From Clostridia bacterium (lineage in GTDB: Bacteria > Bacillota > Clostridia > Lachnospirales > Lachnospiraceae): DNA of 64,000 nt. The DNA is taken from assembly GCA_910576205.1 (NCBI GenBank), contig CAJTHL010000010.1:72900-136899 (forward strand). Direction: 5' to 3'. The notes beneath the pieces were generated by a model that saw nothing but the letters and a program-made list of their open reading frames with translations, made no database searches and was not told the DNA's origin. Positions 1 to 55,881 of this stretch are shown here, one piece after another. Made by a program: the position numbers and the translations under genes. Numbering within the stretch: position 1 is the first letter of the stretch; each line of letters begins with the position of its first letter.

Positions 1-403
1 AATTATAGTAGGCGTTTCCCCTGCTGTCAAACAGATACAGACCCTGGATATCATTGCATAGCAGATGGGTCTGCATCAGTTTATCCTGTAGCGCAACCTG
101 TTGTGACAGCGTGATATCCCCGTCCCTGCGCCCGCTCTCATCCAGAATGGAAAGTACCTTCTGATCCACGGTAATATTTATGAGAAGGGACTGGATCTGA
201 CTGATGTTCTCGTCAATATTGAGACTGATCTGCCATACCAGCTTCGAGAGAAGCTCCCCGGCCAGAATCCTGGAGGTATTCCGGGTAATGACAAACATGC
301 CGAAAACCGTAACCAGAATCAGGGAAACCGAACAGAGAATCCCGGCCAGCAGAACATGAATCCTGAATCCTTTATTTATAATGCTTTCAACAAACTCTCT
401 CAT
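1..403 (-). CDS. sensor histidine kinase, N-terminal part (YesM-like); gene runs off window start
   Basis: Manual translation of minus strand from ATG at 403: MREFVESIINKGFRIHVLLAGILCSVSLILVTVFGMFVITRNTSRILAGEL... TM helix then extracytoplasmic sensor region. Typical partner of a sugar ABC transporter. Stop of upstream permease at 430. Confidence 0.5.
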   Translation of the reverse strand, partial: MREFVESIINKGFRIHVLLAGILCSVSLILVTVFGMFVITRNTSRILAGELLSKLVWQISLNIDENISQIQSLLINITVDQKVLSILDESGRRDGDITLSQQVALQDKLMQTHLLCNDIQGLYLFDSRGNAYYN

Positions 404-429
404 CCACAGTTTCGCCACCTTTTCTTTGC

Positions 430-1275
430 TCAGCCCTTAACGGCCCCCGCCACCATACCTTTGATGAAATACTTCTGGCAGGCCAGAAATACAGCCAGAA
501 GCGGAAGCATCGCCCCAATGGAGCCCGCAAAAACCATGGTCCAGTTTGTAGTATAAAACGCTCCCACAAAATTATACAATGTCACAATCAAGGTCTGAGC
601 GCTGTTTCCCAGAAACAGAAGCGGGGTGAGAAGATCGTTCCAGATGCCAACCAGGCAGAAAATCATTACCGTGGTCAGAGGAGCCTTTATGAGTGGCAGG
701 ATAATGTGGAAAAATGTATAAGCAGGAGTGGCGCCGTCAATAAGAGCCGCCTCGTCCAGTTCTCCCGGAATGGTTTTCATAAAGCCTGTGAGAATCACAA
801 TGGCAATGGGCATAAAGCCCGCCGTATAGATACAGATCACACTCCAGTGGGTTCTCATTATCCCAAGGGTATGGATCAGTTTGTAGAGGGGAAGCATCGT
901 AAGCTGGAAGGGAATCATCATCCCCGCCAGAAAAAACAGGTACAGCCTGGAATAAACCGCTCCTTTCCGCCTTCCCAGCGTATAGGACGCCAGGGAGGCA
1001 GACAGAAGGATCAGCAGAATCGAGACAACGGAGATAAACAGGCTGTTGCAAAGCGCCGGAAAAAATTTCATTTTTTCCATAGCCTCTGCAATATTGCCCC
1101 ATTGAATCTCTGCTGGCAGGCCAAACCGGTTTCTTGCAAATTCCTCCTTGGATTTCAGCGCAATCGAGAAAAGAAGATATAAGGGGGAAAGATAAACCAC
1201 CAGCAGCAGCGCCATGCCGGCGGTCTTTAAGACAGCCGCCGCGCCAGCCCTCTTTTTTCCTGTCTGCCCTCTCAA
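430..1275 (-). CDS. carbohydrate ABC transporter permease (MalG/BPD-type)
   Basis: 281 aa, 6 TM. EAA loop 'LDEAALIDGATPAYTFFHIILP'. 4-nt overlap with upstream permease. Confidence 0.85.
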   Translation of the reverse strand: MRGQTGKKRAGAAAVLKTAGMALLLVVYLSPLYLLFSIALKSKEEFARNRFGLPAEIQWGNIAEAMEKMKFFPALCNSLFISVVSILLILLSASLASYTLGRRKGAVYSRLYLFFLAGMMIPFQLTMLPLYKLIHTLGIMRTHWSVICIYTAGFMPIAIVILTGFMKTIPGELDEAALIDGATPAYTFFHIILPLIKAPLTTVMIFCLVGIWNDLLTPLLFLGNSAQTLIVTLYNFVGAFYTTNWTMVFAGSIGAMLPLLAVFLACQKYFIKGMVAGAVKG

Positions 1276-2183
1276 ATTTCCACCTCCCTCTTATCAAAAA
1301 ACCAGTTTGTCACAACCGTTATCAACATAATCATCAGGAACAAAACCACGCCGATAGCGCAGCCATACCCGTAATCCGAATAGTCGAACGCCTCCCGGAA
1401 AATTTTGGTCGCAATAACCTCCGTGGCATAGCCCGGCCCTCCCTGGGTCATGGTATACACAAGATCAAACTGTTTCAACGCGCCGATCATACACAAAATC
1501 ATATTGATCTTAAAGGCCGGCGCCAGCATGGGCAGCGTGATATTCTTAAGCTTCTGGAAGGGCCTGGCCCCGTCGATTTCCGCCGCCTCATAAATGTCGG
1601 AGGGAATACTCTGAAGGCCGGACACATAGATGACCATGCGGTAAGACATCCACTGCCAGATCCCTGTCAGAATCACAAAATAAATGGCAATGCCGGAATC
1701 CCCGATAAAATCCACCGGCCCCATATGGAGCTTTTCCAGAAAGAGATTGAGTACCCCTTTGTTGTAGCCATAAATGTAGGTCCAGATATAGGATACCACA
1801 ATGGAAGGCAGGACAACCGGCACAAAGAACAGCCCCCGCATGATATTTCTTCCCCGAAGCTTTGTTTCCAGCAGAAGCGCCGTACCCAGGCCCAGCACAT
1901 TCTGCAGCACAACATCCATCAGCACAAACAGGAACGTATTGGAAAGGGCTTTTCTAAAGCCGGGATCCTTAAACATATAAATATAGTTTCCAAACCCAAT
2001 CACTCTCACATTAGCCGAAAAGCCGTCCCAGTTTGTCAGACTGTAATAAAAAGATGAAAACATGGGATAGATAGAAAAAACAACATAAACCAGCAGGGCT
2101 GGCAGCAGAAAGAGCAGGTAAGAGCTCTCTCTGCGCCAAAACGACTTATTTATTTGCCTTTTCCGTTGCCATATCCATATCAT
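1272..2183 (-). CDS. carbohydrate ABC transporter permease (MalF-type)
   Basis: 303 aa. EAA motif 'YEAAEIDGARPFQKLKNITLPMLAPAF'; multiple TM segments. Confidence 0.85.
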   Translation of the reverse strand: MIWIWQRKRQINKSFWRRESSYLLFLLPALLVYVVFSIYPMFSSFYYSLTNWDGFSANVRVIGFGNYIYMFKDPGFRKALSNTFLFVLMDVVLQNVLGLGTALLLETKLRGRNIMRGLFFVPVVLPSIVVSYIWTYIYGYNKGVLNLFLEKLHMGPVDFIGDSGIAIYFVILTGIWQWMSYRMVIYVSGLQSIPSDIYEAAEIDGARPFQKLKNITLPMLAPAFKINMILCMIGALKQFDLVYTMTQGGPGYATEVIATKIFREAFDYSDYGYGCAIGVVLFLMIMLITVVTNWFFDKREVEI

Positions 2184-3438
2184 TCAGCACCTCCACAGGG
2201 GTCTTGTCTCCGCCAATCATCTCCTGAATGCTGGAAAACATAACTGCCTGGACCCCGCTTGCAAAATTTGCGTCGTCAAAGGGATATCCCGGAAGGCCTG
2301 CAGCAGCGTCCATGGTCTCTGCCAGCGCGTCGCTCACTCCGGACTCAATATCGCTAAAACAGGTGATCTGCGAACTTGCGTAGGTTTCCAGAGCCTCCTT
2401 GGACAGTATATAGGCCAGAAGATCTTTTGCCGCCTCCACATTCTCTGAATCAGCGGAAACGCCCCATCCACCTGTGATGCTGACTGCAAAGCCCGTGGAG
2501 CCTCCCTCGGCGGGAATGGGGAATCCGCCCACTTCAAAATCGGGATTCAGCGCAAAGATACTGGCGTCTCCCCAGGTTCCCGTAAAGGTCATGGCCGCCT
2601 CCTTGTTAATAAACGCCTCGTACATCTGCTCCGACGTCATGCCAAGAGAGCCCTCGTTCATATAACCCTTCTTAATCATATCGTCGTATTTTGTCAGTGT
2701 ATCCAGCCACCCGGCATTGTCGGAAAACTTATTGATTCCGTCCGCCGTCCCCTCATAAAAAGACGGATCCGCCGCCTGGACCGCGCTTGCGTTCAGACTG
2801 TATGTAAGCATCTGTGTAACCCAGGTATCCTTGTGTCCCTGAACAACGGGTGTAATTCCGGCCGCCTTTAACACCTCGCAGCAGTTTATCAGCTCTTCCC
2901 AGGTAGCCGGAGCCGTAAGATTGTACTGGGCAAACATATCCTTATTATAGTAAGCCAGCAGAAACTGTTGCAGATATGGAATTCCGATGATTCCCCCGTC
3001 ATCTGCCACAAAGCTGGAAATGGCGCCCTCATTCAGACGGTCAAGGATCTCTGTCATATCCCTCAGATCTTCCAGATATCCGTTTTCATAGTAAGAAAAA
3101 TAATCTGCCGCCGAAAAAACGGGAAGGATATCCGGGGCGTCATTGGACGCCAGCTTCGTCTTAATAATGGTTTTATAGCTCTCTGTGTCCATGATCTGTA
3201 CATCCACCTTTACATTGGGATGCTGGTCACAATAGTCGTCTATTGCCCCTTGAAAAAATTCATTTCCGGTAATAAGAATAATAGAAAGAGAAATCTCCTC
3301 ATTTCCAGAGGCCTCTTTCCCGTCTGTGACGTCTGGTGCAGACTGTCCTCCCGCCTCTCCTTTTGTTTCCTTTGCCCCACATGCCGTCAGTGACAACACC
3401 ATCATAAATCCCAACAACCATGCAACCGCTTTTTTCAT
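2146..3438 (-). CDS. ABC transporter extracellular solute-binding lipoprotein (sugar family 1)
   Basis: 430 aa. Lipoprotein signal 'MKKAVAWLLGFMMVLSLTACGAK'. RBS aggtgaagg upstream. Confidence 0.85.
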   Translation of the reverse strand: MKKAVAWLLGFMMVLSLTACGAKETKGEAGGQSAPDVTDGKEASGNEEISLSIILITGNEFFQGAIDDYCDQHPNVKVDVQIMDTESYKTIIKTKLASNDAPDILPVFSAADYFSYYENGYLEDLRDMTEILDRLNEGAISSFVADDGGIIGIPYLQQFLLAYYNKDMFAQYNLTAPATWEELINCCEVLKAAGITPVVQGHKDTWVTQMLTYSLNASAVQAADPSFYEGTADGINKFSDNAGWLDTLTKYDDMIKKGYMNEGSLGMTSEQMYEAFINKEAAMTFTGTWGDASIFALNPDFEVGGFPIPAEGGSTGFAVSITGGWGVSADSENVEAAKDLLAYILSKEALETYASSQITCFSDIESGVSDALAETMDAAAGLPGYPFDDANFASGVQAVMFSSIQEMIGGDKTPVEVLNDMDMATEKANK

Positions 3439-3726
3439 TTTCCTTCACCTCTTTCGCTTTATTACACAAATAATTCTCTGTGTTGCTTATTATTATAGCA
3501 ATTCTGCACATACCGAAAAAGGCTGTCTGTCTTAGAATTATATCCGGATTATTATACCTCCCGAATAGAGCTCTGTCCGGCGTCCTTTATCTTCCAGGGT
3601 GGCTCTGGCGGAAAACGGAATTGTTATTGTTATGTAAACTTTTTTCCTTTTACCCCTATATAAAAACCACTGTAAGCCTGGTATAGCACGTGGGCCCACA
3701 GCGGTTACTCTTTTACGTCATTCAGC

Positions 3727-4524
3727 TTATAAAATGCCGATTGCTTCTTTCTTCCTTCTCACATAATCCCTCACATGGGAAGCGCTCCCCTTACCATATC
3801 TCTGGCAGAGCTCTACAACCCCCGTTCCCGCCATGACGCCGTCCGCCAGCCTGGCCAGGGAATCTGCCTCCGACCGGGGAAAGCTTCCGGTGTCTATAAC
3901 ACAGGGGATCTCTCTTTCCTGTCTTATCTGTCTTACCAGGACTTCCATGCCTTCTGTACGCCGGACGCCCGGGGCCGGCACACAGTATACAAACCCTTCC
4001 GCCGCCTGCACAATGCCGGAAATGCGTTCCCCTGGGGCAGGGGCAGCCTGCAAAATGAAGGCTATCCCGTTTTCCCGGCAGGGCAGCGCAAACTCTTCCC
4101 GCTCCTCAAAGGGCACGTCGGGCAGAATCAGCGCGTCCACGCCGGCCCCGGCGGCTCTTCTGATAAAAGCCCGGATTCCTCCCGGCTGTTCTTCGCCGGC
4201 CCCCTTTTGCCTGTAAGAAAATACCACGTTGGCGTAAGTCATAAACGCCAGGGGAATCACCGTGTGTCTCCGTATCCGCTCCACCATGGCAAATATCCCG
4301 TCTGTGGTTGCGCCGCCTGTCAGGGCCCGCGCATTTGCGGCCTGGATCACCGGCCCCTCCGCCGTGGGATCCGAAAAGGGAATTCCCAACACAATCAGAT
4401 CCGCCTGCGCCTCCGCCATGGCATACACCATTTCTTCCGTCGCCTCCAGGGAAGGATCCCCGCAGGTGATAAACGGAAGAAATGCCTTTCCATTTTCAAA
4501 TACACTCCTAATCCTGTTACTCAT
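3727..4524 (-). CDS. trpA: tryptophan synthase alpha subunit
   Basis: [31 protein letters not shown]... matches TrpA. Start chosen at MSNRI with RBS GGGGAGGA; 8-nt overlap with trpB. Confidence 0.85.
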
Positions 4525-12283: not shown

Positions 12284-12367
12284 GCGGAAGTGTCGGAACT
12301 GGCAGACGAGCAAGACTAAGGATCTTGTGGCATTCGTGCCGTGTGGGTTCAAGTCCCATCTTCCGCA
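12284..12367 (+). tRNA. tRNA-Leu (type II, long variable arm), apparent anticodon AAG; no encoded CCA
   Basis: Cloverleaf folded by eye. Acceptor GCGGAAG/CTTCCGC plus A. D-stem TCG/CGA. Anticodon stem CAAGA/TCTTG with loop CTAAGGA giving anticodon A34-A35-G36. Variable arm TGGCATTCGTGCCGT. T-arm GTGGG-TTCAAGT-CCCAT. Confidence 0.75.
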
Positions 12368-16168: not shown

Positions 16169-16924
16169 CTACACCGGCACCAGCTTACCGTGAAGCACAG
16201 ACCTGGCATTGTTAAACACATAGGCGCAGGTGGACAGCAGCACATAGCGCTCCCCCTCTCCAGGCTCCACATCCGCCTCAAAGTCGGATTTCGCCAGGGC
16301 ATTTCCGATATACTGGTCCAGCTCCTCCCCGGCTCCCTGGAAAATGGCGTAGGTATCCGACCCGGCCTTGGTGGTATAGCCGCTAAAAAGGACGATCTTG
16401 TAATTCTGTTCTGGCGTCAGCAGCCACATAAAGGGATGTTCCTCGTAAAACTGCTGATCCGCCCACTCCCCCAGAGGGGCGAACATGGTCTTGTTCAGCA
16501 TATGATGACCGTAGATAATGGTGTTGGAATCCGAAAAATCCGGCTGGTTTCCACAGTCTATAAAAATCGACCCGGAGGTGGTGTAGGTGCCGTCGTAGGC
16601 GTGCTTGAGATAATACTGGTTGTCGCTCCCCTGCACCACAGGGTAGTTGATAACCGTGCCCTCACAGTAAATCCAGCCGATCACATGTTCATTTTCCTGG
16701 CGCAGAGCATCAAAATCCACCTCAATGGGCGGAACCTCTACCGTCTCCTCCTTAATGTCCTCCTCATGCCTTGGGACATTGACGGCCGTAAACTGCTTCA
16801 TGGCCTGGCTGTAAAGCTGTTCGTCCGTATGATACTGATGCTGCGCGTAAAGAATCACGCCCACAGACCCCACAAACACCAGAAGAAGCAGCATTGTCAG
16901 CAGGCGCCTTATTTTCCGAAACAT
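16169..16924 (-). CDS. class B sortase
   Basis: 251 aa. N-terminal TM anchor; 'IYGHHM' and 'LLSTCAY' (TLxTC catalytic Cys) motifs. Confidence 0.8.
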   Translation of the reverse strand: MFRKIRRLLTMLLLLVFVGSVGVILYAQHQYHTDEQLYSQAMKQFTAVNVPRHEEDIKEETVEVPPIEVDFDALRQENEHVIGWIYCEGTVINYPVVQGSDNQYYLKHAYDGTYTTSGSIFIDCGNQPDFSDSNTIIYGHHMLNKTMFAPLGEWADQQFYEEHPFMWLLTPEQNYKIVLFSGYTTKAGSDTYAIFQGAGEELDQYIGNALAKSDFEADVEPGEGERYVLLSTCAYVFNNARSVLHGKLVPV

Positions 16925-16954
16925 AGTCTGTCCATTCCTTCCTGCATGATTATT

Positions 16955-17503
16955 CTATCCTTCTCTTCTGCGCTCCCGCATCCTTCCTGCCAGGATGTTA
17001 AACATCACCCCGCAGGCGGCAAAGCAGATCACATAAATCTTTCCCACGGAGCTGGTGTAAATCTCCAGAAACCGTCCAAAAAAAGGATAGTGGCGACTGA
17101 CCCTTCCAATCAGCGCGGAATAGTCCGCCTTTTCCATATCCTCCTCAGCGTTGGCGTCCCCCTTGGTGGTAAATTTTCCCTCCACCACCTGGTTTTCTAC
17201 CACCCGGTGGATAATGACAGAGTCGCCGCTTTGAAAGGCGATAACGTCGCCGCCGGCCACATCCTCGGCCCGCACGCCCTCCACATAGACTACGCTCCCC
17301 ACGGGAATCTCCGGCTCCATACTGCCGCTGACCACGTTGTAGATGCCGTAGCCCAGGAAGCGGGGCAGCGTAAGCGCCAGGCACAGGGCCAGTACGGCCA
17401 TTAGAATAAGGACTCCTAAAATATTGCAGAGCGAGGGAAGAAATCCCCCGCCCCCTTTTTTTCTCCGGGACAGCAAAGCATCATCCATGCCATTCATATA
17501 CAT
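16955..17503 (-). CDS. signal peptidase I, SipW (archaeal/ER-type)
   Basis: 182 aa. 'VVSGSMEPEIPVGSVVYV' catalytic Ser region, 'DVIAFQSGDSVIIHRVV'. Next to SipW-cognate substrates. Confidence 0.75.
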   Translation of the reverse strand: MYMNGMDDALLSRRKKGGGGFLPSLCNILGVLILMAVLALCLALTLPRFLGYGIYNVVSGSMEPEIPVGSVVYVEGVRAEDVAGGDVIAFQSGDSVIIHRVVENQVVEGKFTTKGDANAEEDMEKADYSALIGRVSRHYPFFGRFLEIYTSSVGKIYVICFAACGVMFNILAGRMRERRREG

Positions 17504-50367: not shown

Positions 50368-51630
50368 TCAGTCTGTCGCAGATTCTGTAATTCCAGGCGG
50401 TGATTCATCGTATTCGCAGATATACCCCGTATTCCCTTTATAGGAGGGCGCCGCATCCAGCATATCGTCCGGCACATCGTTCAGGTAATATCTGCCGTCC
50501 TCCTTGTTGTACATCATAACAAGACAGCTCTCCTCCACCTCCCGGCCGTCCTCGGTCATTCCCCGGTAGGTGGGCTCCATTTTATAGTCCCCGTAATGCC
50601 TCCAGAATCCGTAATAAGCCCGGAATGGCATTTCCCGCCTGCTGCCGTCCGGTTCTATCCAGTTGTAGCCAAATGTGGTTTCCCCATCCATGCGCCCGTT
50701 GTTTGCCCCCACGTAAAAGGTGATGCCTGTCATTCCCTCCTCCCCTATCCGGGCTTCTATGGCCTCCCGCTCCTCCTGGGAGGTGATTACCGCAAGATAC
50801 CCGCCTCTCTTCCTGCATTCCTCCCTGGCCTCCCGCCAGGTGAGATCTTCCACTACCAGATCATAAGTATGATCTGCCGACGTATGCCGCCCTGTCTTTA
50901 GAAGGGACTGAAGCTCTTTCCAGTCGTAGTAAATCTCTGGCGACTTTGCCCGGCTCCTGTCGTAGACTTCCTTAAGAGCTGCCTCATATTCCTCCCCGGA
51001 TACCTGTTTTCCTTCCCAGCTGTACTGGAAAATAAAGTTGTCCTCCTCGTCCAGCACAGGGCCGCCCTCCGGGTCCCCGTACTCTCCCTCCGCCATGAGA
51101 ATCCATTTCCCATCCTTCAGCGCAAAAACCCGGTCATAGTAGAATCCCATATTTCCGTCGGAATTGCACAGGAGGCCTTTCCTCTCCAGATAATCAAAAT
51201 TAAGCCGGTAGGTCTGGACGGCGTCTACCTCCCTGTGACTGTATGTGAGAATCAGACATCCCCCGGCCTCAAACCCGCTGTCGCACACCAGCTCGGGAAT
51301 CTGGTCATCATCCACATAAATAAAGCTATAGGTACAGCCTGCCGCATATTTCCCCCCTGCTTCCTGGTCCAGGGCCTCCAGATACTTTGCATACGCTGTC
51401 CGCCAGGCGTCCCCAAAAGTCTCCTCACGCAAGGCTTCATTTCCGGTTTCTTTTTGTTCTTCCCGGCTTTTTCCATTTTCCGTCTCCCCGGAAGCTTTCG
51501 GCGGGTTTGCTCCGGCGCGCTCCCTGGGAAGTCTCCCGGAATCCTCCTGGCTGCATCCCACAAGGGCCAGCGCCAGAAGGATTCCCCCTATGGCTCTTTT
51601 CAGATATCCGTATCTTTTGCATGTTTTCAT
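50368..51630 (-). CDS. lipoprotein with C-type lectin-like domain
   Basis: Start at MKTCKRYGYLKRAIGGILLALALVGCSQ. CTLD signature 'WREAREECRKRGGYLAVITSQEEREAI...YVGANNG'. Confidence 0.6.
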   Translation of the reverse strand: MKTCKRYGYLKRAIGGILLALALVGCSQEDSGRLPRERAGANPPKASGETENGKSREEQKETGNEALREETFGDAWRTAYAKYLEALDQEAGGKYAAGCTYSFIYVDDDQIPELVCDSGFEAGGCLILTYSHREVDAVQTYRLNFDYLERKGLLCNSDGNMGFYYDRVFALKDGKWILMAEGEYGDPEGGPVLDEEDNFIFQYSWEGKQVSGEEYEAALKEVYDRSRAKSPEIYYDWKELQSLLKTGRHTSADHTYDLVVEDLTWREAREECRKRGGYLAVITSQEEREAIEARIGEEGMTGITFYVGANNGRMDGETTFGYNWIEPDGSRREMPFRAYYGFWRHYGDYKMEPTYRGMTEDGREVEESCLVMMYNKEDGRYYLNDVPDDMLDAAPSYKGNTGYICEYDESPPGITESATD

Positions 51631-51631
51631 C

Positions 51632-52345
51632 TCACATTGCCCCTTTATACGCCACAAAGGCCTCCCTGACGCTCCGGTAGCGAAGCCTTGGAATGGGCAG
51701 CTCCTCCCCGGTATCAAGAAACACCCTGTAATTACTGATCCTGCGGATATGCCGCATATTTACCAGGTAACTCTTGTGAATGCGCAAAAAGCCATACCCC
51801 TGAAGCCTCTCCTCTACGGCGTCCAGCTTATCGTATAACTGATAAGTTACAGGCCCTGTCTCCATATAGGAAAAGAGGGTTTTGTGCCTGCGGCTCTCCA
51901 CATAGAGAAGGTTGTCGGTGTAAAGGTTTTTCTCTCCCTCCAGAAAAGAAAACCGCACCCGTGCCAGCCGCATTTTTTCCAGAATGGCCTCCATACACTC
52001 CGCCACTCCCGCCTCCAGGGCATCCTTTAGAATATAACGCACGGCGTTGACCTTGTACCCCTCCAGCACATAGCTGATAAAGGCCGTCACAAGGACTATA
52101 TACGTGTCCGAGTGAAATGCACGGATTTCCATGGCTGTCTGGATGCCGTCCACCTCTTCCATGTTGATATCCAGAAATACCACGTCATATTTTACCCGGT
52201 TTTCCCCCTCCTCCAGAAAAGCCTTCCCGGAGGGGAACAGGCTGATCTCATAGGGAAGCCTGCGGGCATCCAGGTATTTTTCCAGAAGGGCTTTGATTTT
52301 TTCTAAGTAATACGGTTCGTCGTCGCAGATGGCAAGGCGCAGCAT
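51632..52345 (-). CDS. LytTR-family response regulator
   Basis: 237 aa. Receiver 'LAICDDE...VVFLDINM' plus LytTR DNA-binding domain. Confidence 0.8.
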   Translation of the reverse strand: MLRLAICDDEPYYLEKIKALLEKYLDARRLPYEISLFPSGKAFLEEGENRVKYDVVFLDINMEEVDGIQTAMEIRAFHSDTYIVLVTAFISYVLEGYKVNAVRYILKDALEAGVAECMEAILEKMRLARVRFSFLEGEKNLYTDNLLYVESRRHKTLFSYMETGPVTYQLYDKLDAVEERLQGYGFLRIHKSYLVNMRHIRRISNYRVFLDTGEELPIPRLRYRSVREAFVAYKGAM

Positions 52346-52379
52346 ATTAATATAGGACTCCTTTTTAAAAAGGCAAATC

Positions 52380-53330
52380 TCACCAGATCTTTTTCAACAA
52401 TTCTTTCAATTCCTTTAATTCTGTTTCACAAAAAAGTTTATGATTGGAATTTAATAGATTAAGAATCCGCTTCCTGTCTATTACACAAGTATGTATCTCT
52501 GTGGCATTTTCAAATCTCCCGGAAGCATTCTGACAAAAAAACGGTACAAACATACAGGACCAGAAAGGGGCTAAGGGCGCAATCCTGGTACTCCATACGT
52601 CGTAACCGACAGCCTTTTGTTTATCTATCCATTCATCATAACTACAAGTACATTGGGCAAAAGCAAAAGGAATATGCGATGAATCATCTAATTTAAGAAA
52701 GGAAACAATATCCAGCCCCCCATCTCCTCCACGGATCCTGTCATACCTCTCATCCTGATCTATAATCTTTGTTGTCTGTGCTCCCAGGCATTCAGCAAGC
52801 TGCATAATTCGTGTACGCAGATTCCCATGAAATACACCCTCGTCACGTGCCGTTCCAAATAATTCTGTCTGTGCATTTACAGGCATTAAACATTTCATAA
52901 ATGGATAACAGTATTTTTCAAATGCATAGGTAACCTTCTGCATAGAAAGCTTATCCATAAAACTTATATTTGAGCAAATCAGCAAAAAGAAATAATGTAA
53001 ATATTCTCCAGTTAAGGTTTCTTTTATGGTGATACATTGTCCATCCTCAATCTCAAAAGGATAGTATTCTGAAAACATTTCATTTCGATATTTGATTACT
53101 TCGTAATAATTATCTATATTTGTACTTAATTTATCATAATTCGCCGAGTGAACGCTTTGTCCCCGCTGCAAATCCAGAATATCTTCATCAAAAAACAAAT
53201 CAAGTACGTCATCTTTGGTTATTATGTGATCATCTACATACAAGCATCGAAACTCTATATAATCTGCCCAGCGATTCACATGATACCCACTCCAATCTGG
53301 TATTTTTAATGAATTCTCTGTCTTTATCAT
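52380..53330 (-). CDS. hypothetical protein in low-GC island (partner of ParB-like protein)
   Basis: 316 aa, no recognisable motif except 'GGDGGLDIVSFLKLDD'. ~30% GC versus ~57% flanks. Confidence 0.55.
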   Translation of the reverse strand: MIKTENSLKIPDWSGYHVNRWADYIEFRCLYVDDHIITKDDVLDLFFDEDILDLQRGQSVHSANYDKLSTNIDNYYEVIKYRNEMFSEYYPFEIEDGQCITIKETLTGEYLHYFFLLICSNISFMDKLSMQKVTYAFEKYCYPFMKCLMPVNAQTELFGTARDEGVFHGNLRTRIMQLAECLGAQTTKIIDQDERYDRIRGGDGGLDIVSFLKLDDSSHIPFAFAQCTCSYDEWIDKQKAVGYDVWSTRIAPLAPFWSCMFVPFFCQNASGRFENATEIHTCVIDRKRILNLLNSNHKLFCETELKELKELLKKIW

Positions 53331-53338
53331 AATCGTTT

Positions 53339-54487
53339 TTATTTCCTTAATAGCTTTCTTAGCTGTTCCAGTACTTCCGGGTCAGAAGCAAGCTTCTCTA
53401 TACTAATCCCCTGCTCTTCATTCCGTCCAAAATTAGCTTCCAATCCTCCCGAGATTGTCTTTAATAAACGATCAATATCTTCCAATAGCCCCTTCGCCTC
53501 AAGTGGCTCTTTGCCAAGCTGCTCAATGGCATCTTTAGCCTGTTTTAATTGTTGTTTTGCCTTTGAAAGCATTTCAATAAACGCCTCGGCTGGAGCTGAA
53601 GTATACAGCAAAGCTTCGTCTACAGTACTGCCTTTTTCCAGCCTGGCCAATGCTGCAGGAGATTCTGTAATCTTTGCAAGGTCAGAGATCTCCCTTACCT
53701 CTCTGATAACGGCTTTTCCGGGATAAAACATCCATGTGAATATTTTTTTAAAATGTTCTTCCTCTAAGCTGCTTAGGGAGGCATCCGTTGTGCCAGACAA
53801 GCCAATATATTCTGATATCCCCCTAAAGCCCAAAGCAGTTGTCAGCCAGGAAAACTGAATATCCTCTTCCTTAATATCTGCACCATAATAGGCTCTGTCA
53901 TTTGCTCTCTCATACAGCTTCAGAGCCTTATGGAGCTTTGCAACATAGTCCGTGCGGCTCCCAATAATTTTTGCCAGTTTCTGGTATATTTTATCTAATT
54001 GCGTATTTTGAATATGAATCTTATATAACTGGTCAAGATAACGCGCCTTTTCCAGCGCTCCCCAGTCCTTTACACCTGTAATATGCCTATAGCCCAGATA
54101 ATCCAGAACATCCTCTTTATTTGCATAAAGGATACAAGGTATTACCTCTGGTTTAAACTTTGCTTCCAGAATCACATTTTTAATAGCCTGCTGCCTTATC
54201 TTGGTCAGACCTGGATTATTCAGCAATTTTAAAGCGGCTAACCGCCGGTTTCCCTCTACAACGATATACCTTCCATCTGCTTCCCTTACAACCAGAAGAG
54301 GCTCCGCATCTGAATATCCCATTTCAGCAATGGAAAGCATTAATTCAACAATATTTCCATATTTTACCATATAATCTATAATTTTATTTTCATCCGTCTC
54401 ACCTTGCAGGCGTATGGGTAACCTTGGATTTCTCTCATCAAACCACAAGCTTTTTAACTCTATTTCCAGTTTTTTTCTATCTGCCAT
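53339..54487 (-). CDS. ParB/Srx-fold (ParB N-terminal nuclease-like domain) protein
   Basis: Start at MADRKKLEIELK (RBS GGAGG); ORF track begins at an upstream TTG. 'DGRYIVVEGNRRLAALKLL' ParB-box GxRR motif; long helical C-terminus. Low GC. Confidence 0.6.
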   Translation of the reverse strand: MADRKKLEIELKSLWFDERNPRLPIRLQGETDENKIIDYMVKYGNIVELMLSIAEMGYSDAEPLLVVREADGRYIVVEGNRRLAALKLLNNPGLTKIRQQAIKNVILEAKFKPEVIPCILYANKEDVLDYLGYRHITGVKDWGALEKARYLDQLYKIHIQNTQLDKIYQKLAKIIGSRTDYVAKLHKALKLYERANDRAYYGADIKEEDIQFSWLTTALGFRGISEYIGLSGTTDASLSSLEEEHFKKIFTWMFYPGKAVIREVREISDLAKITESPAALARLEKGSTVDEALLYTSAPAEAFIEMLSKAKQQLKQAKDAIEQLGKEPLEAKGLLEDIDRLLKTISGGLEANFGRNEEQGISIEKLASDPEVLEQLRKLLRK

Positions 54488-54602
54488 AAGGACCTCCAAA
54501 GCATTTTTATCAAACGATATTATAACCTTGTCAGCAATAATTATAAATGAATCCTTAATAAATAGCAATGTATAAAAAGTATTTATATGCTGTAAGAAAA
54601 GA

Positions 54603-54650
54603 GACGCCCACCGCCCCTTTTAAAGGCTGTGACGTCTCTTTCCTTTATAA
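54603..54650 (-). terminator. rho-independent terminator after anti-sigma gene
   Basis: Minus strand gagacg-loop-cgtctc followed by TTTTCTT. Confidence 0.5.
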
Positions 54651-54678: not shown

Positions 54679-55881
54679 TTACTGCTCCGGCACTTTATAC
54701 ATATACACGGCAAAAGTTGCGGTTCCGTCTCCATTCCATGTCATGGTGGGGACTTCAAGGTCTGTAACGCCGTCGCTATACATATATCCAAGAATCCCCA
54801 AAGCGCCCGTGGCAGGCTCCTTCCCAAAGAGTTCCTCACAGAAGCAGGTGCCGCTTCCCCCACTACCATCTTCTCCCACCTGGTAGGAATAGGGAACCTC
54901 ATTTCCTTCCACTTTCAGAACCTGCACAGTAGACTCGATAACCGTGGCGTACTGATCCATGAATTCCTTTGTCAGAGTTTTCTCCTGGCTCATGTTTATA
55001 AGCGTCTCCATCCAGTCGTCCACCGCCAGATCTGACTCACTCTTCTCTATGGGCTCCTCCGGGGCATCCCATTCTGCCTGCAGTTCCCTTAAAAACGCTT
55101 CCGCCGCCGCCGGATCTCCCTTGGCTTTATCAATAGGCACGGTAAACAGGGCGTTGACACCGTTAAAGTCTTCATTTCGCGTAATTTCCCCTGTAGCCTC
55201 ATTGAAATTATACGCCTGGGAATCGTAAAAAGTGCCGGAATTGACGCCAAAGTAAATTCCCCTGTCGGCAAACATTTCGATGTTGTTTGTCTCCGCCATG
55301 CGGTAGGTAACTCCGTTCTGTACAAACTCCGAATAGCCGCCGTGCATGGTTATACAGTTGTATTCATTTGGATTTAACCCTCCAATGTACAGGGACGCAA
55401 AGAAGGGATCCTTTCCATAGTTTTCGTCGCTTGTATCTGGCATAGGGGTTCCATCTGTGCGCTCAATGGCCGTGGCAATATACATACGCTCATCCAGAAG
55501 GCTTCCGGCCTCTGTCCCCATATATTTACTGACGTCCTTTCCCCCCACAATTCCCAGAAATGTGATTTTATAGTCCCCAAACTCCTGACTTTCGTTGACC
55601 AGCACTGCGTTTTCCCCCGCAAATGTCTCTGCCAGCTTATCGTCGTTCATCTCCTCTGCCATCTGGGAAGGCGTAAAATATTTGTATGCGGCAAATCCTG
55701 TAATGGAACCAAATGCCAGCGTCAGACACGCCGCCAGGACGACTGCCGGGTATTTTTTTCTTCCTCGTTTCATATAAGTCATCTCCTCTGCCTGCTTAAG
55801 GATACTCTGGTTAAGCCGTGCTTCCGGTCCTCTCTCTGGAGACAACGCCTGCTTTAAAATCCTGTCCATATCTCTGCTCAT
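54679..55881 (-). CDS. anti-sigma factor-like membrane protein
   Basis: 400 aa. Cytoplasmic N-terminus, one TM 'AVVLAACLTLAFGSITGFAAY', large extracytoplasmic domain. Overlaps the sigma gene by ~60-70 nt. Confidence 0.55.
   Translation of the reverse strand: MSRDMDRILKQALSPERGPEARLNQSILKQAEEMTYMKRGRKKYPAVVLAACLTLAFGSITGFAAYKYFTPSQMAEEMNDDKLAETFAGENAVLVNESQEFGDYKITFLGIVGGKDVSKYMGTEAGSLLDERMYIATAIERTDGTPMPDTSDENYGKDPFFASLYIGGLNPNEYNCITMHGGYSEFVQNGVTYRMAETNNIEMFADRGIYFGVNSGTFYDSQAYNFNEATGEITRNEDFNGVNALFTVPIDKAKGDPAAAEAFLRELQAEWDAPEEPIEKSESDLAVDDWMETLINMSQEKTLTKEFMDQYATVIESTVQVLKVEGNEVPYSYQVGEDGSGGSGTCFCEELFGKEPATGALGILGYMYSDGVTDLEVPTMTWNGDGTATFAVYMYKVPEQ

Follow-up and report, generated by a model that had tools for sequence, protein, structure and literature searches.

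A ParB-like protein and a predicted PD-(D/E)xK nuclease as the probable restriction side of a methylase-linked defense cassette, present without its methylase in a Clostridia bacterium

INTRODUCTION

The restriction enzymes CglI and NgoAVII depend on a nucleoside triphosphate (NTP) and have three parts: an R nuclease, an N NTPase, and a 5-methylcytosine (m5C) methylase. Their nuclease is of the PLD type, and their ATPase resembles a superfamily 2 (SF2) helicase. Here we describe a two-gene island at positions 52346 to 54602 of a 64-kb stretch of DNA from a Clostridia bacterium of the Lachnospiraceae (contig CAJTHL010000010.1). This whole stretch is called the window below, and all unlabeled coordinates refer to it. 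The island encodes a ParB-like protein and a partner that models as a nuclease. The family to which this pair belongs follows the three-part logic of CglI and NgoAVII: beside an m5C methylase, there is a nuclease subunit that has its own DNA-binding domain, and the predicted NTPase is a subunit of its own. Here, however, the nuclease is of the PD-(D/E)xK type and the NTPase has a ParB/Srx fold. We put the probability at about 55% that the island holds the two restriction-side subunits of an uncharacterized, probably NTP-dependent, defense cassette that resembles a restriction-modification (RM) system.

Several described systems come close to this pair. AbiR of Lactococcus lactis pairs a ParB-like protein with a nuclease of the restriction type, and it becomes toxic if the LlaKR2I methylase is missing (PMC13064643). 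Compared by description, it is like the window family in its tie to a DNA methylase and in its ParB-like protein: 5K5D is the best structural match both of that protein and of the window protein. However, AbiR has three genes, one of them sigma-70-like and one a nuclease-Snf2 helicase fusion; the island has neither a sigma-like nor a Snf2 gene. Of the AbiR components, the ParB-like one alone has a counterpart in the island. PD-lambda-5 is a validated prophage-borne defense system with a methyltransferase and has been called a compact RM plus abortive infection (Abi) system (Vassallo et al. 2022; PMC9519451). It shares a homologous ParB N-domain and a methyltransferase with the window family. 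However, its ParB domain lies inside a protein of 440 to 500 amino acids (aa) that also has a methyltransferase part, whereas here the C5 methylase is separate and the partner has no match to the PD-lambda-5 B model. The PADLOC model of PD-lambda-5 matches the N-domain of our ParB-like protein with an E value of 3e-26, but only over profile positions of about 5 to 170. We rejected membership in PD-lambda-5 because the match is confined to the ParB domain.

GmrSD, BrxU, SspE, and NsnA of Menshen likewise couple a nucleotide-binding domain of the ParB superfamily to a nuclease, in their case for immune surveillance of DNA (PMC12065111, PMC12373910). They belong to the DUF262 branch (motif DGQQR), are usually fused to HNH/DUF1524 domains, and are mostly modification dependent. 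The window family, in contrast, is nearer to classical ParB (motif EGNRR) and has a separate PD-(D/E)xK protein and a linked methylase. Our ParB-like protein carries EGNRR and gave no DUF262 or DUF1524 match at an E value of ≤1. The cytidine triphosphate (CTP)-dependent clamps ParB, Noc, and KorB have the same domain order and boxes I and II, but the window protein is paired with a nuclease and has no ParA or centromere. Finally, MspJI and AspBHI share the nuclease fold and a GGxD...Qx-type motif with the partner. They carry an SRA-like domain, whereas the partner family has a winged helix.

RESULTS AND DISCUSSION

The island encodes a ParB-like protein and a predicted nuclease

The features of the two genes are as follows.

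53339 to 54487, reverse strand: predicted ParB-like NTPase subunit, 382 aa, made up of a ParB/Srx N-domain, a DNA-binding region of the ParB/KorB type, and a C terminus that is long and helical
54422 to 54430, reverse strand: codons N20-P21-R22, ParB box I-like (FDxxNPR), invariant in 46 sequences from many phyla, plus A2
54242 to 54256, reverse strand: codons E78-G79-N80-R81-R82, ParB box II (GxRRxxA), invariant in the 46 sequences
52380 to 53330, reverse strand: predicted nuclease subunit, 316 aa, with an N-terminal winged helix and a C-terminal PD-(D/E)xK restriction endonuclease fold
52620 to 52724, reverse strand: putative active-site codons D203-G-G-L-D207, Q226-C-T-C229, and K237, assigned by conservation; E138 is at 52917 to 52919

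The island had first been described from the DNA letters alone (the original prediction) as two tightly linked genes with an 8-nt spacer, the first encoding a ParB/Srx-fold protein with a ParB motif. This description, including the sizes of the two proteins, was correct. It also held that the partner has no recognizable domain, and this was overturned by the structure prediction given below. The ParB-like gene starts with the ATG at 54487, five bases downstream of a GGAGG ribosome-binding site (RBS) at 54497 to 54493. Its open reading frame (ORF) is already open from a TTG at 54568, but the homologues share the start at 54487. The nuclease gene lies downstream after the 8-nt gap, and the two genes are co-transcribed.

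The ParB motif VVEGNRRLAALKLL forms residues 76 to 89 of the ParB-like protein. Box II (VVEGNRRLAALK) aligned to GERRLRA of the solved ParB structure 4umk and is predicted to bind the nucleotide phosphates. The protein has the whole ParB layout, in which a DNA-binding region and a helical tail follow the predicted nucleotide-binding N-domain. In addition to the residues of boxes I and II, D17, H135, W142, and K147 are invariant in the 46 sequences. The protein scores far below the curated ParB cutoffs, with 13.6 bits for the Pfam model and 25 bits against a cutoff of 58 for TIGR00180. Residues 43 to 342 also matched positions 58 to 359 of the 715-position profile of protein A of the PADLOC candidate PDC-M38 (E value, 1e-19). 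The partner had no match there, and we found no description of PDC-M38 in the literature.

The partner had no meaningful match in Pfam, NCBIfam, PADLOC (E ≤ 1), or the PDB sequences, and its fold came to light through structure prediction alone. The partner confidently models as a winged helix followed by a restriction endonuclease fold, with a mean predicted local distance difference test (pLDDT) score of 88.6 and a predicted template modeling (pTM) score of 0.89, and cleavage is predicted from this fold. The nuclease domain is structurally closest to MspJI and AspBHI, with MspJI as the top Foldseek match (E value, 4.9e-3). Among 49 partner sequences, five residues never vary (E138, D203, G205, D207, and K237), and three more (Q226, C227, and C229) show a conservation of 90% or higher. 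The motif GGDGGLD...AQCTC...K follows the D...Qx pattern of Mrr and MspJI, and the further lysine, K237, stands eleven residues on. The Pfam Mrr_cat model did not match the partner. In hhalign, GGDGGLDIV..AQCTC was set opposite RDGGRDA..EAKC of an AspBHI-like Mrr_cat domain, although this alignment was not significant (probability, 0.16). We infer from conservation that E138, D203, D207, Q226, and K237 are the catalytic residues. Two single chimeric or truncated sequences, in which the partner is fused to PLD or TatD domains (P0072 and P0073), were set aside.

The pair is linked to C5-cytosine methyltransferases across phyla

We scanned one genome per species and obtained 52 loci, which span Bacillota, Bacteroidota, Pseudomonadota, Acidobacteriota, Verrucomicrobiota, Planctomycetota, Actinomycetota, and others. 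The ParB-like gene was immediately upstream of the nuclease gene on the same strand, and often overlapped it, in 49 loci; the other three were cut by contig ends. The pairwise identities of the two proteins co-vary (rho = 0.66). The family is large: the partner profile found 2,416 cluster representatives at 50% identity, 615 of them with an E value of ≤1e-30, and nearly all were 310 to 350 aa long.

A C5-cytosine methyltransferase was the next gene downstream in 33 of the 49 paired loci (16 co-directional and 17 convergent), and in these 33 loci no other nuclease was present beside the methylase. The methyltransferase was immediately upstream in 5 loci and two genes off in another 5. It was thus at most two genes away in 43 of 49 loci, and 4 more loci with a methyltransferase within 10 kb bring the total to 47. 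Because of this association, we regard the family as RM-like. The main methylase lineage is 53 to 72% identical across phyla, which exceeds the conservation of the pair, and its best PADLOC match is DruM of the Druantia type. The region between the nuclease and methylase genes contains a conserved extended -10 element (TGTTATAAT) and an RBS (GAGGAGGTGA), as in L061 (10952 to 11009), L161 (2490 to 2549), and L009 (10949 to 11011). Therefore, the methylase has its own promoter, as in many RM systems.

In some clades, other methylase lineages stand in for the main one. Several Lachnospiraceae loci have a HaeIII-type methylase and endonuclease together with an AspBHI-like enzyme in its place. Vsr accompanies the cassette in seven loci. 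Some loci are degraded: the nuclease gene is truncated and the methylase kept in L056 and L015, and all three genes are degraded in L058. These are decay states typical of RM systems.

Three further loci have unusual gene structures. In L057 (9917 to 13452), an insert of about 2 kb interrupts the nuclease gene after about profile position 207, and a C5 methylase gene lies farther downstream, at 16241 to 17266. L012 (5420 to 7552) and L011 (6505 to 8625) contain single frames of 707 to 711 aa with a C5 DNA methylase and a HaeIII endonuclease domain. These may be true methylase-endonuclease fusions, or two genes may have been merged by the simple ORF caller.

Beyond domain-level matches, we found no description of the cassette in the literature, PADLOC, Pfam, NCBIfam, or PHROGs. 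The PHROGs entry for both proteins reads unknown function, and database members are labeled "hypothetical protein" or "ParB N-terminal domain-containing protein." A methylome paper on E. coli O145 reported no m5C motif, and the cassette is not mentioned in Rousset 2022.

The cassette occurs in defense islands and mobile elements

The three-gene cassette sits beside replication gene A in the P2 hotspot of E. coli phage vB_EcoM-12474II, Yersinia phage HQ103, and Pseudomonas phage vB_PaeM-D14A. This site is a defense hotspot defined in PMC9519451. The P2-type cassette at 204 to 3240 of MK907236.1 is identical in E. coli O145:H28 RM13514. None of the phage homologues of the partner had a PADLOC match. 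Thirty-six complete E. coli genomes carry the cassette, annotated in order as "ParB N-terminal domain-containing protein," "hypothetical protein," and "DNA cytosine methyltransferase." A copy on an integrative and conjugative element (ICE) adjoins type IV secretion genes. In Claveliimonas bilis (AP027743.1; L005, 2027 to 13036), the pair lies in a compact defense island whose genes are, in order, SIR2-HerA, DarT-NADAR (DarG-like), the pair itself, Vsr, Dcm, R.HaeIII, an AspBHI-like Mrr enzyme, and IS21. In B. subtilis (CP188116.1; L001, 7224 to 12711), the pair lies between rlmH and fbp. The same interval holds yydB-yydD in strain 168, and it may be a variable hotspot.

These contexts (the SIR2-HerA/DarTG/RM island, the P2 hotspot, and the ICE) agree with the original prediction of a defense module, but its claim of a self-contained two-gene system does not fit the methylase found in 47 of 49 loci. 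The search of PADLOC and of gene neighborhoods that it had proposed gave a domain-level match for the ParB-like protein and none for the partner, whereas the neighborhoods revealed the methylase linkage and the defense islands.

The ParB-like protein had homologues on 4 of 72,556 plasmids, none of them from Lactococcus. Persicobacter plasmid pPP2 (L160, 3846 to 5915) is the only one with the pair; its PLSDB gene table, which is incomplete, lists no methylase. The label "partition protein" on the ParB-like gene of pPP2 is probably a misannotation.

The window copy is intact but lacks a methylase

No C5 methyltransferase gene was present in the 64-kb window, which is the part of the source genome that this negative result covers. 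The homology of the window to methylase-bearing relatives stops at the stop codon of the nuclease gene. At the position of 52346 to 52379, the aligned relatives begin the methylase promoter and gene. The window copy nevertheless retains every invariant residue of both proteins. In a neighbor-joining tree of the partner, it falls within a Lachnospiraceae clade whose other members (P0005, P0011, and L009) have a downstream methylase. A second methylase-less copy, P0014, is on a separate branch, and the methylase-less B. subtilis copy stands beside methylase-bearing copies of Paenibacillus and Brevibacillus. Because the methylase-less copies are on separate branches, the tree points to three or more events in which the methylase either was lost or did not come along.

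By blastn, the metagenome contigs with 99% or higher identity to the window fell into two groups. Four (L066 to L069) have the intact pair, and eight (L070 to L077) have the same two deletions at the same site:

53768 to 54287, reverse strand: 520 bp deleted, which removes about residues 67 to 240 of the ParB-like protein, including box II
52399 to 52548, reverse strand: 150 bp deleted, at the 3' end of the nuclease gene

In the deleted strains, the gene calls are broken into 67, 130, and 243 aa. These deletions indicate that the strains can do without the pair and are losing it. Comparison with strains that lack the insertion had been proposed as a way to define its boundaries. Every conspecific contig bears the island, intact or deleted, so that no empty site was found and deleted versions of the pair were found instead. 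Nor did 48 related LytTR loci provide an empty site, because their upstream regions are not syntenic. The counts of synonymous and nonsynonymous differences between the strains were too few for inference on selection. Judged by its sequence, the window copy would be an intact but solitary restriction-side pair, an incomplete and possibly inactive cassette.

A proposed mechanism and its alternatives

We suggest that, in the complete cassette, the C5 methyltransferase would mark the host DNA and the ParB-like subunit (N) would bind unmarked DNA. The NTP-driven ParB-like switch of N, acting as a clamp or by sliding, would then license or deliver the nuclease (R), and R, the winged-helix PD-(D/E)xK protein, would cut. 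In this scheme, we infer that R is active as a nuclease, that an NTP is needed, that methylation protects the host, and in which order the events took place. The window cassette may have come by horizontal transfer without the methyltransferase or may have lost it afterwards. The host could tolerate the pair if an unlinked methylase protects the DNA, or if the pair is harmless until a trigger or the methylase lets it act; the nuclease might rely on the methylase to recognize its target, as Type I and Type III enzymes do. The pair could also be silent or on its way to loss.

If the RM-like reading is correct, the cassette would represent a restriction architecture with a ParB-type nucleotide switch and would join the field of CTP-gated clamps to immunity. 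The E. coli prophage copy would be a directly testable model, and the source genome would offer an example of a cassette that arrived by transfer, lost its methylase, and decayed. A more specific version is that a ParB-type, CTP- or NTP-gated clamp scans DNA for sites that lack m5C and brings in a PD-(D/E)xK nuclease of its own, which would constitute a new restriction class. We offer this version only tentatively and hold it to be possible rather than likely. In it, the ParB clamp mechanism would serve in self/non-self discrimination for the first time. The methylase-less Firmicutes copies, the window copy among them, would then be a stand-alone offshoot that waits for a trigger or else harmless relics, which would show that the nuclease requires the methylase as its recognition subunit.

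Several observations weigh against the RM-like reading. Intact pairs without a methylase occur in at least three lineages (the source species, the species of P0014, and B. subtilis). Such recurrence fits a classical restriction enzyme poorly, unless the host DNA is guarded in trans or the pair cannot act without the methylase. In the partner family, T, S, or A replaces the lysine that is canonical in the (E/Q)xK motif, although the invariant K237 and E138 may complete the active site. MspJI and AspBHI, to which the nuclease is structurally closest, are both modification dependent. The methylase next to the pair in several Lachnospiraceae loci is part of a complete HaeIII-type RM system, and therefore adjacency alone is no proof of a cognate methylase.

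Much of this evidence would also fit a stand-alone innate nuclease that has no need of a methylase. Such a pair would be a split analogue of GmrSD, BrxU, or SspE that cuts foreign DNA that is modified or abnormal in other ways, or it would be triggered by phage, and the neighboring methylases would belong to other systems or mark sites that play no part for the pair. The m5C dependence of MspJI and AspBHI, the D...Qx motif of the Mrr/MspJI type, and the intact methylase-less pairs in three unrelated Firmicutes lineages all point this way. AspBHI-like Type IV genes also adjoin m5C methylases in the same islands, and known Type IV enzymes are driven by NTPases of the ParB superfamily (PMC12065111, PMC12373910). 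However, 47 of 49 loci have a C5 methylase within 10 kb, in 33 of them as the adjoining gene and with no other nuclease, and the linked methylase lineage exceeds the pair in conservation; both points speak against a stand-alone nuclease. The N terminus of the partner is a winged helix and not an SRA-like base-flipping domain, and the DUF262 motifs are absent. We therefore regard this explanation as rather unlikely, while giving it more weight than any of those that follow. The tight linkage to C5 methylases could also be read as a sign of a repair or housekeeping accessory of m5C methylation, in which a Vsr-like mismatch nuclease would work with a ParB-like loader. Vsr itself has a restriction endonuclease-like fold. 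We consider such a role very improbable.

The original prediction had raised the idea of an addiction module. In a toxin-antitoxin pair, the ParB-like protein would neutralize the nuclease, and the tight coupling of the genes (the 8-nt spacer here and overlap in relatives) and their presence on mobile elements would suit this. Yet both proteins are large and have invariant motifs of an enzymatic type, and such sizes and motifs are atypical of toxin-antitoxin systems. The methylase linkage implies a different logic of self-protection, and the larger deletion in the sister strains hits the ParB-like gene, although the nuclease gene is truncated too. We see little chance that the pair is a module of this kind. 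The full ParB-like domain order, and one record that reads "ParB/RepB/Spo0J family partition protein," could instead indicate a partition or nucleoid-organization protein (ParB-, Noc-, or KorB-like) of a former mobile element, with the partner as unrelated cargo. We found no ParA among the ORFs of 48 to 58 kb and no parS-like repeats in 51.5 to 55.5 kb, and the latter scan revealed no centromere-like or flanking repeats of any kind. Homologues are almost absent from plasmids (4 of 72,556), the nuclease gene adjoins in 49 of 52 loci, and the protein scores below the ParB cutoffs. A partition locus was rejected on these grounds and is scarcely credible, as the original prediction had anticipated when it doubted that this is a partition protein.

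The island has foreign composition and lies between two operons

The original prediction gave the island a GC content of about 30%, some 25 points below its flanks. These figures were too extreme. The GC content of 52346 to 54602 is 37.7% (36.0% in the partner gene and 40.9% in the ParB-like gene), which is 13 to 16 points below the flanks (50.0 to 53.5%). The claim of foreign composition itself was borne out. No other 2.26-kb stretch of the window has so low a GC content: the island lies 4.2 standard deviations below the mean of 51.7%. GC at third codon positions is 32 to 38% in the pair versus 56 to 66% in neighboring genes. Because of these two properties, the foreign origin of the island is well supported.

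The following signals flank the pair.

54594 to 54645, reverse strand: terminator-like hairpin of the sigma/anti-sigma operon; RNA fold free energy, -29.7 kcal/mol; z score, -6.9 versus 200 shuffles
54519 to 54568, reverse strand: two sigma-70-like promoter matches that overlap each other and precede the ParB-like gene, 10 of 12 consensus positions each by consensus scan
52346 to 52379, reverse strand: 34-nt junction between the stop of the nuclease gene and the start of the LytTR gene, with an RBS alone and no terminator by sequence and terminator scan

The pair lies between a LytTR regulator gene (51632 to 52345) and an anti-sigma gene (54679 to 55881), as had been predicted. The hairpin stands after the anti-sigma gene and forms the upstream edge of the island, and the GC content falls from there. 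The -35 and -10 elements claimed for the pair are present as TTGCTA-17-TATAAT (54568 to 54540) and TTTATA-17-TATAAT (54547 to 54519). However, they are weak evidence for a promoter because the AT-rich 3 kb yields many such sites (14, compared with 7.6 ± 3.1 in shuffled sequences). The 34-nt junction has no terminator, and therefore read-through into the LytTR operon is probable: the LytTR, lectin-like, and kinase genes are probably transcribed from the promoter of the foreign island.

The lectin-like gene of this operon (50368 to 51630, reverse strand; 420 to 449 aa) has a weak C-type lectin match and lies between the LytTR regulator gene and the gene of a HATPase_c_5 kinase. In the 48 related LytTR loci, whose regulators are 60 to 68% identical, the kinase gene directly follows the regulator gene. 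On the other side of the island, the anti-sigma homologue of the L070 lineage (about 3247 to 4341) carries a K10* change relative to the window, and its called gene is 364 aa instead of 400. Elsewhere in the window, a tRNA gene at 12284 to 12367 on the forward strand is the sole Rfam match at the gathering threshold.

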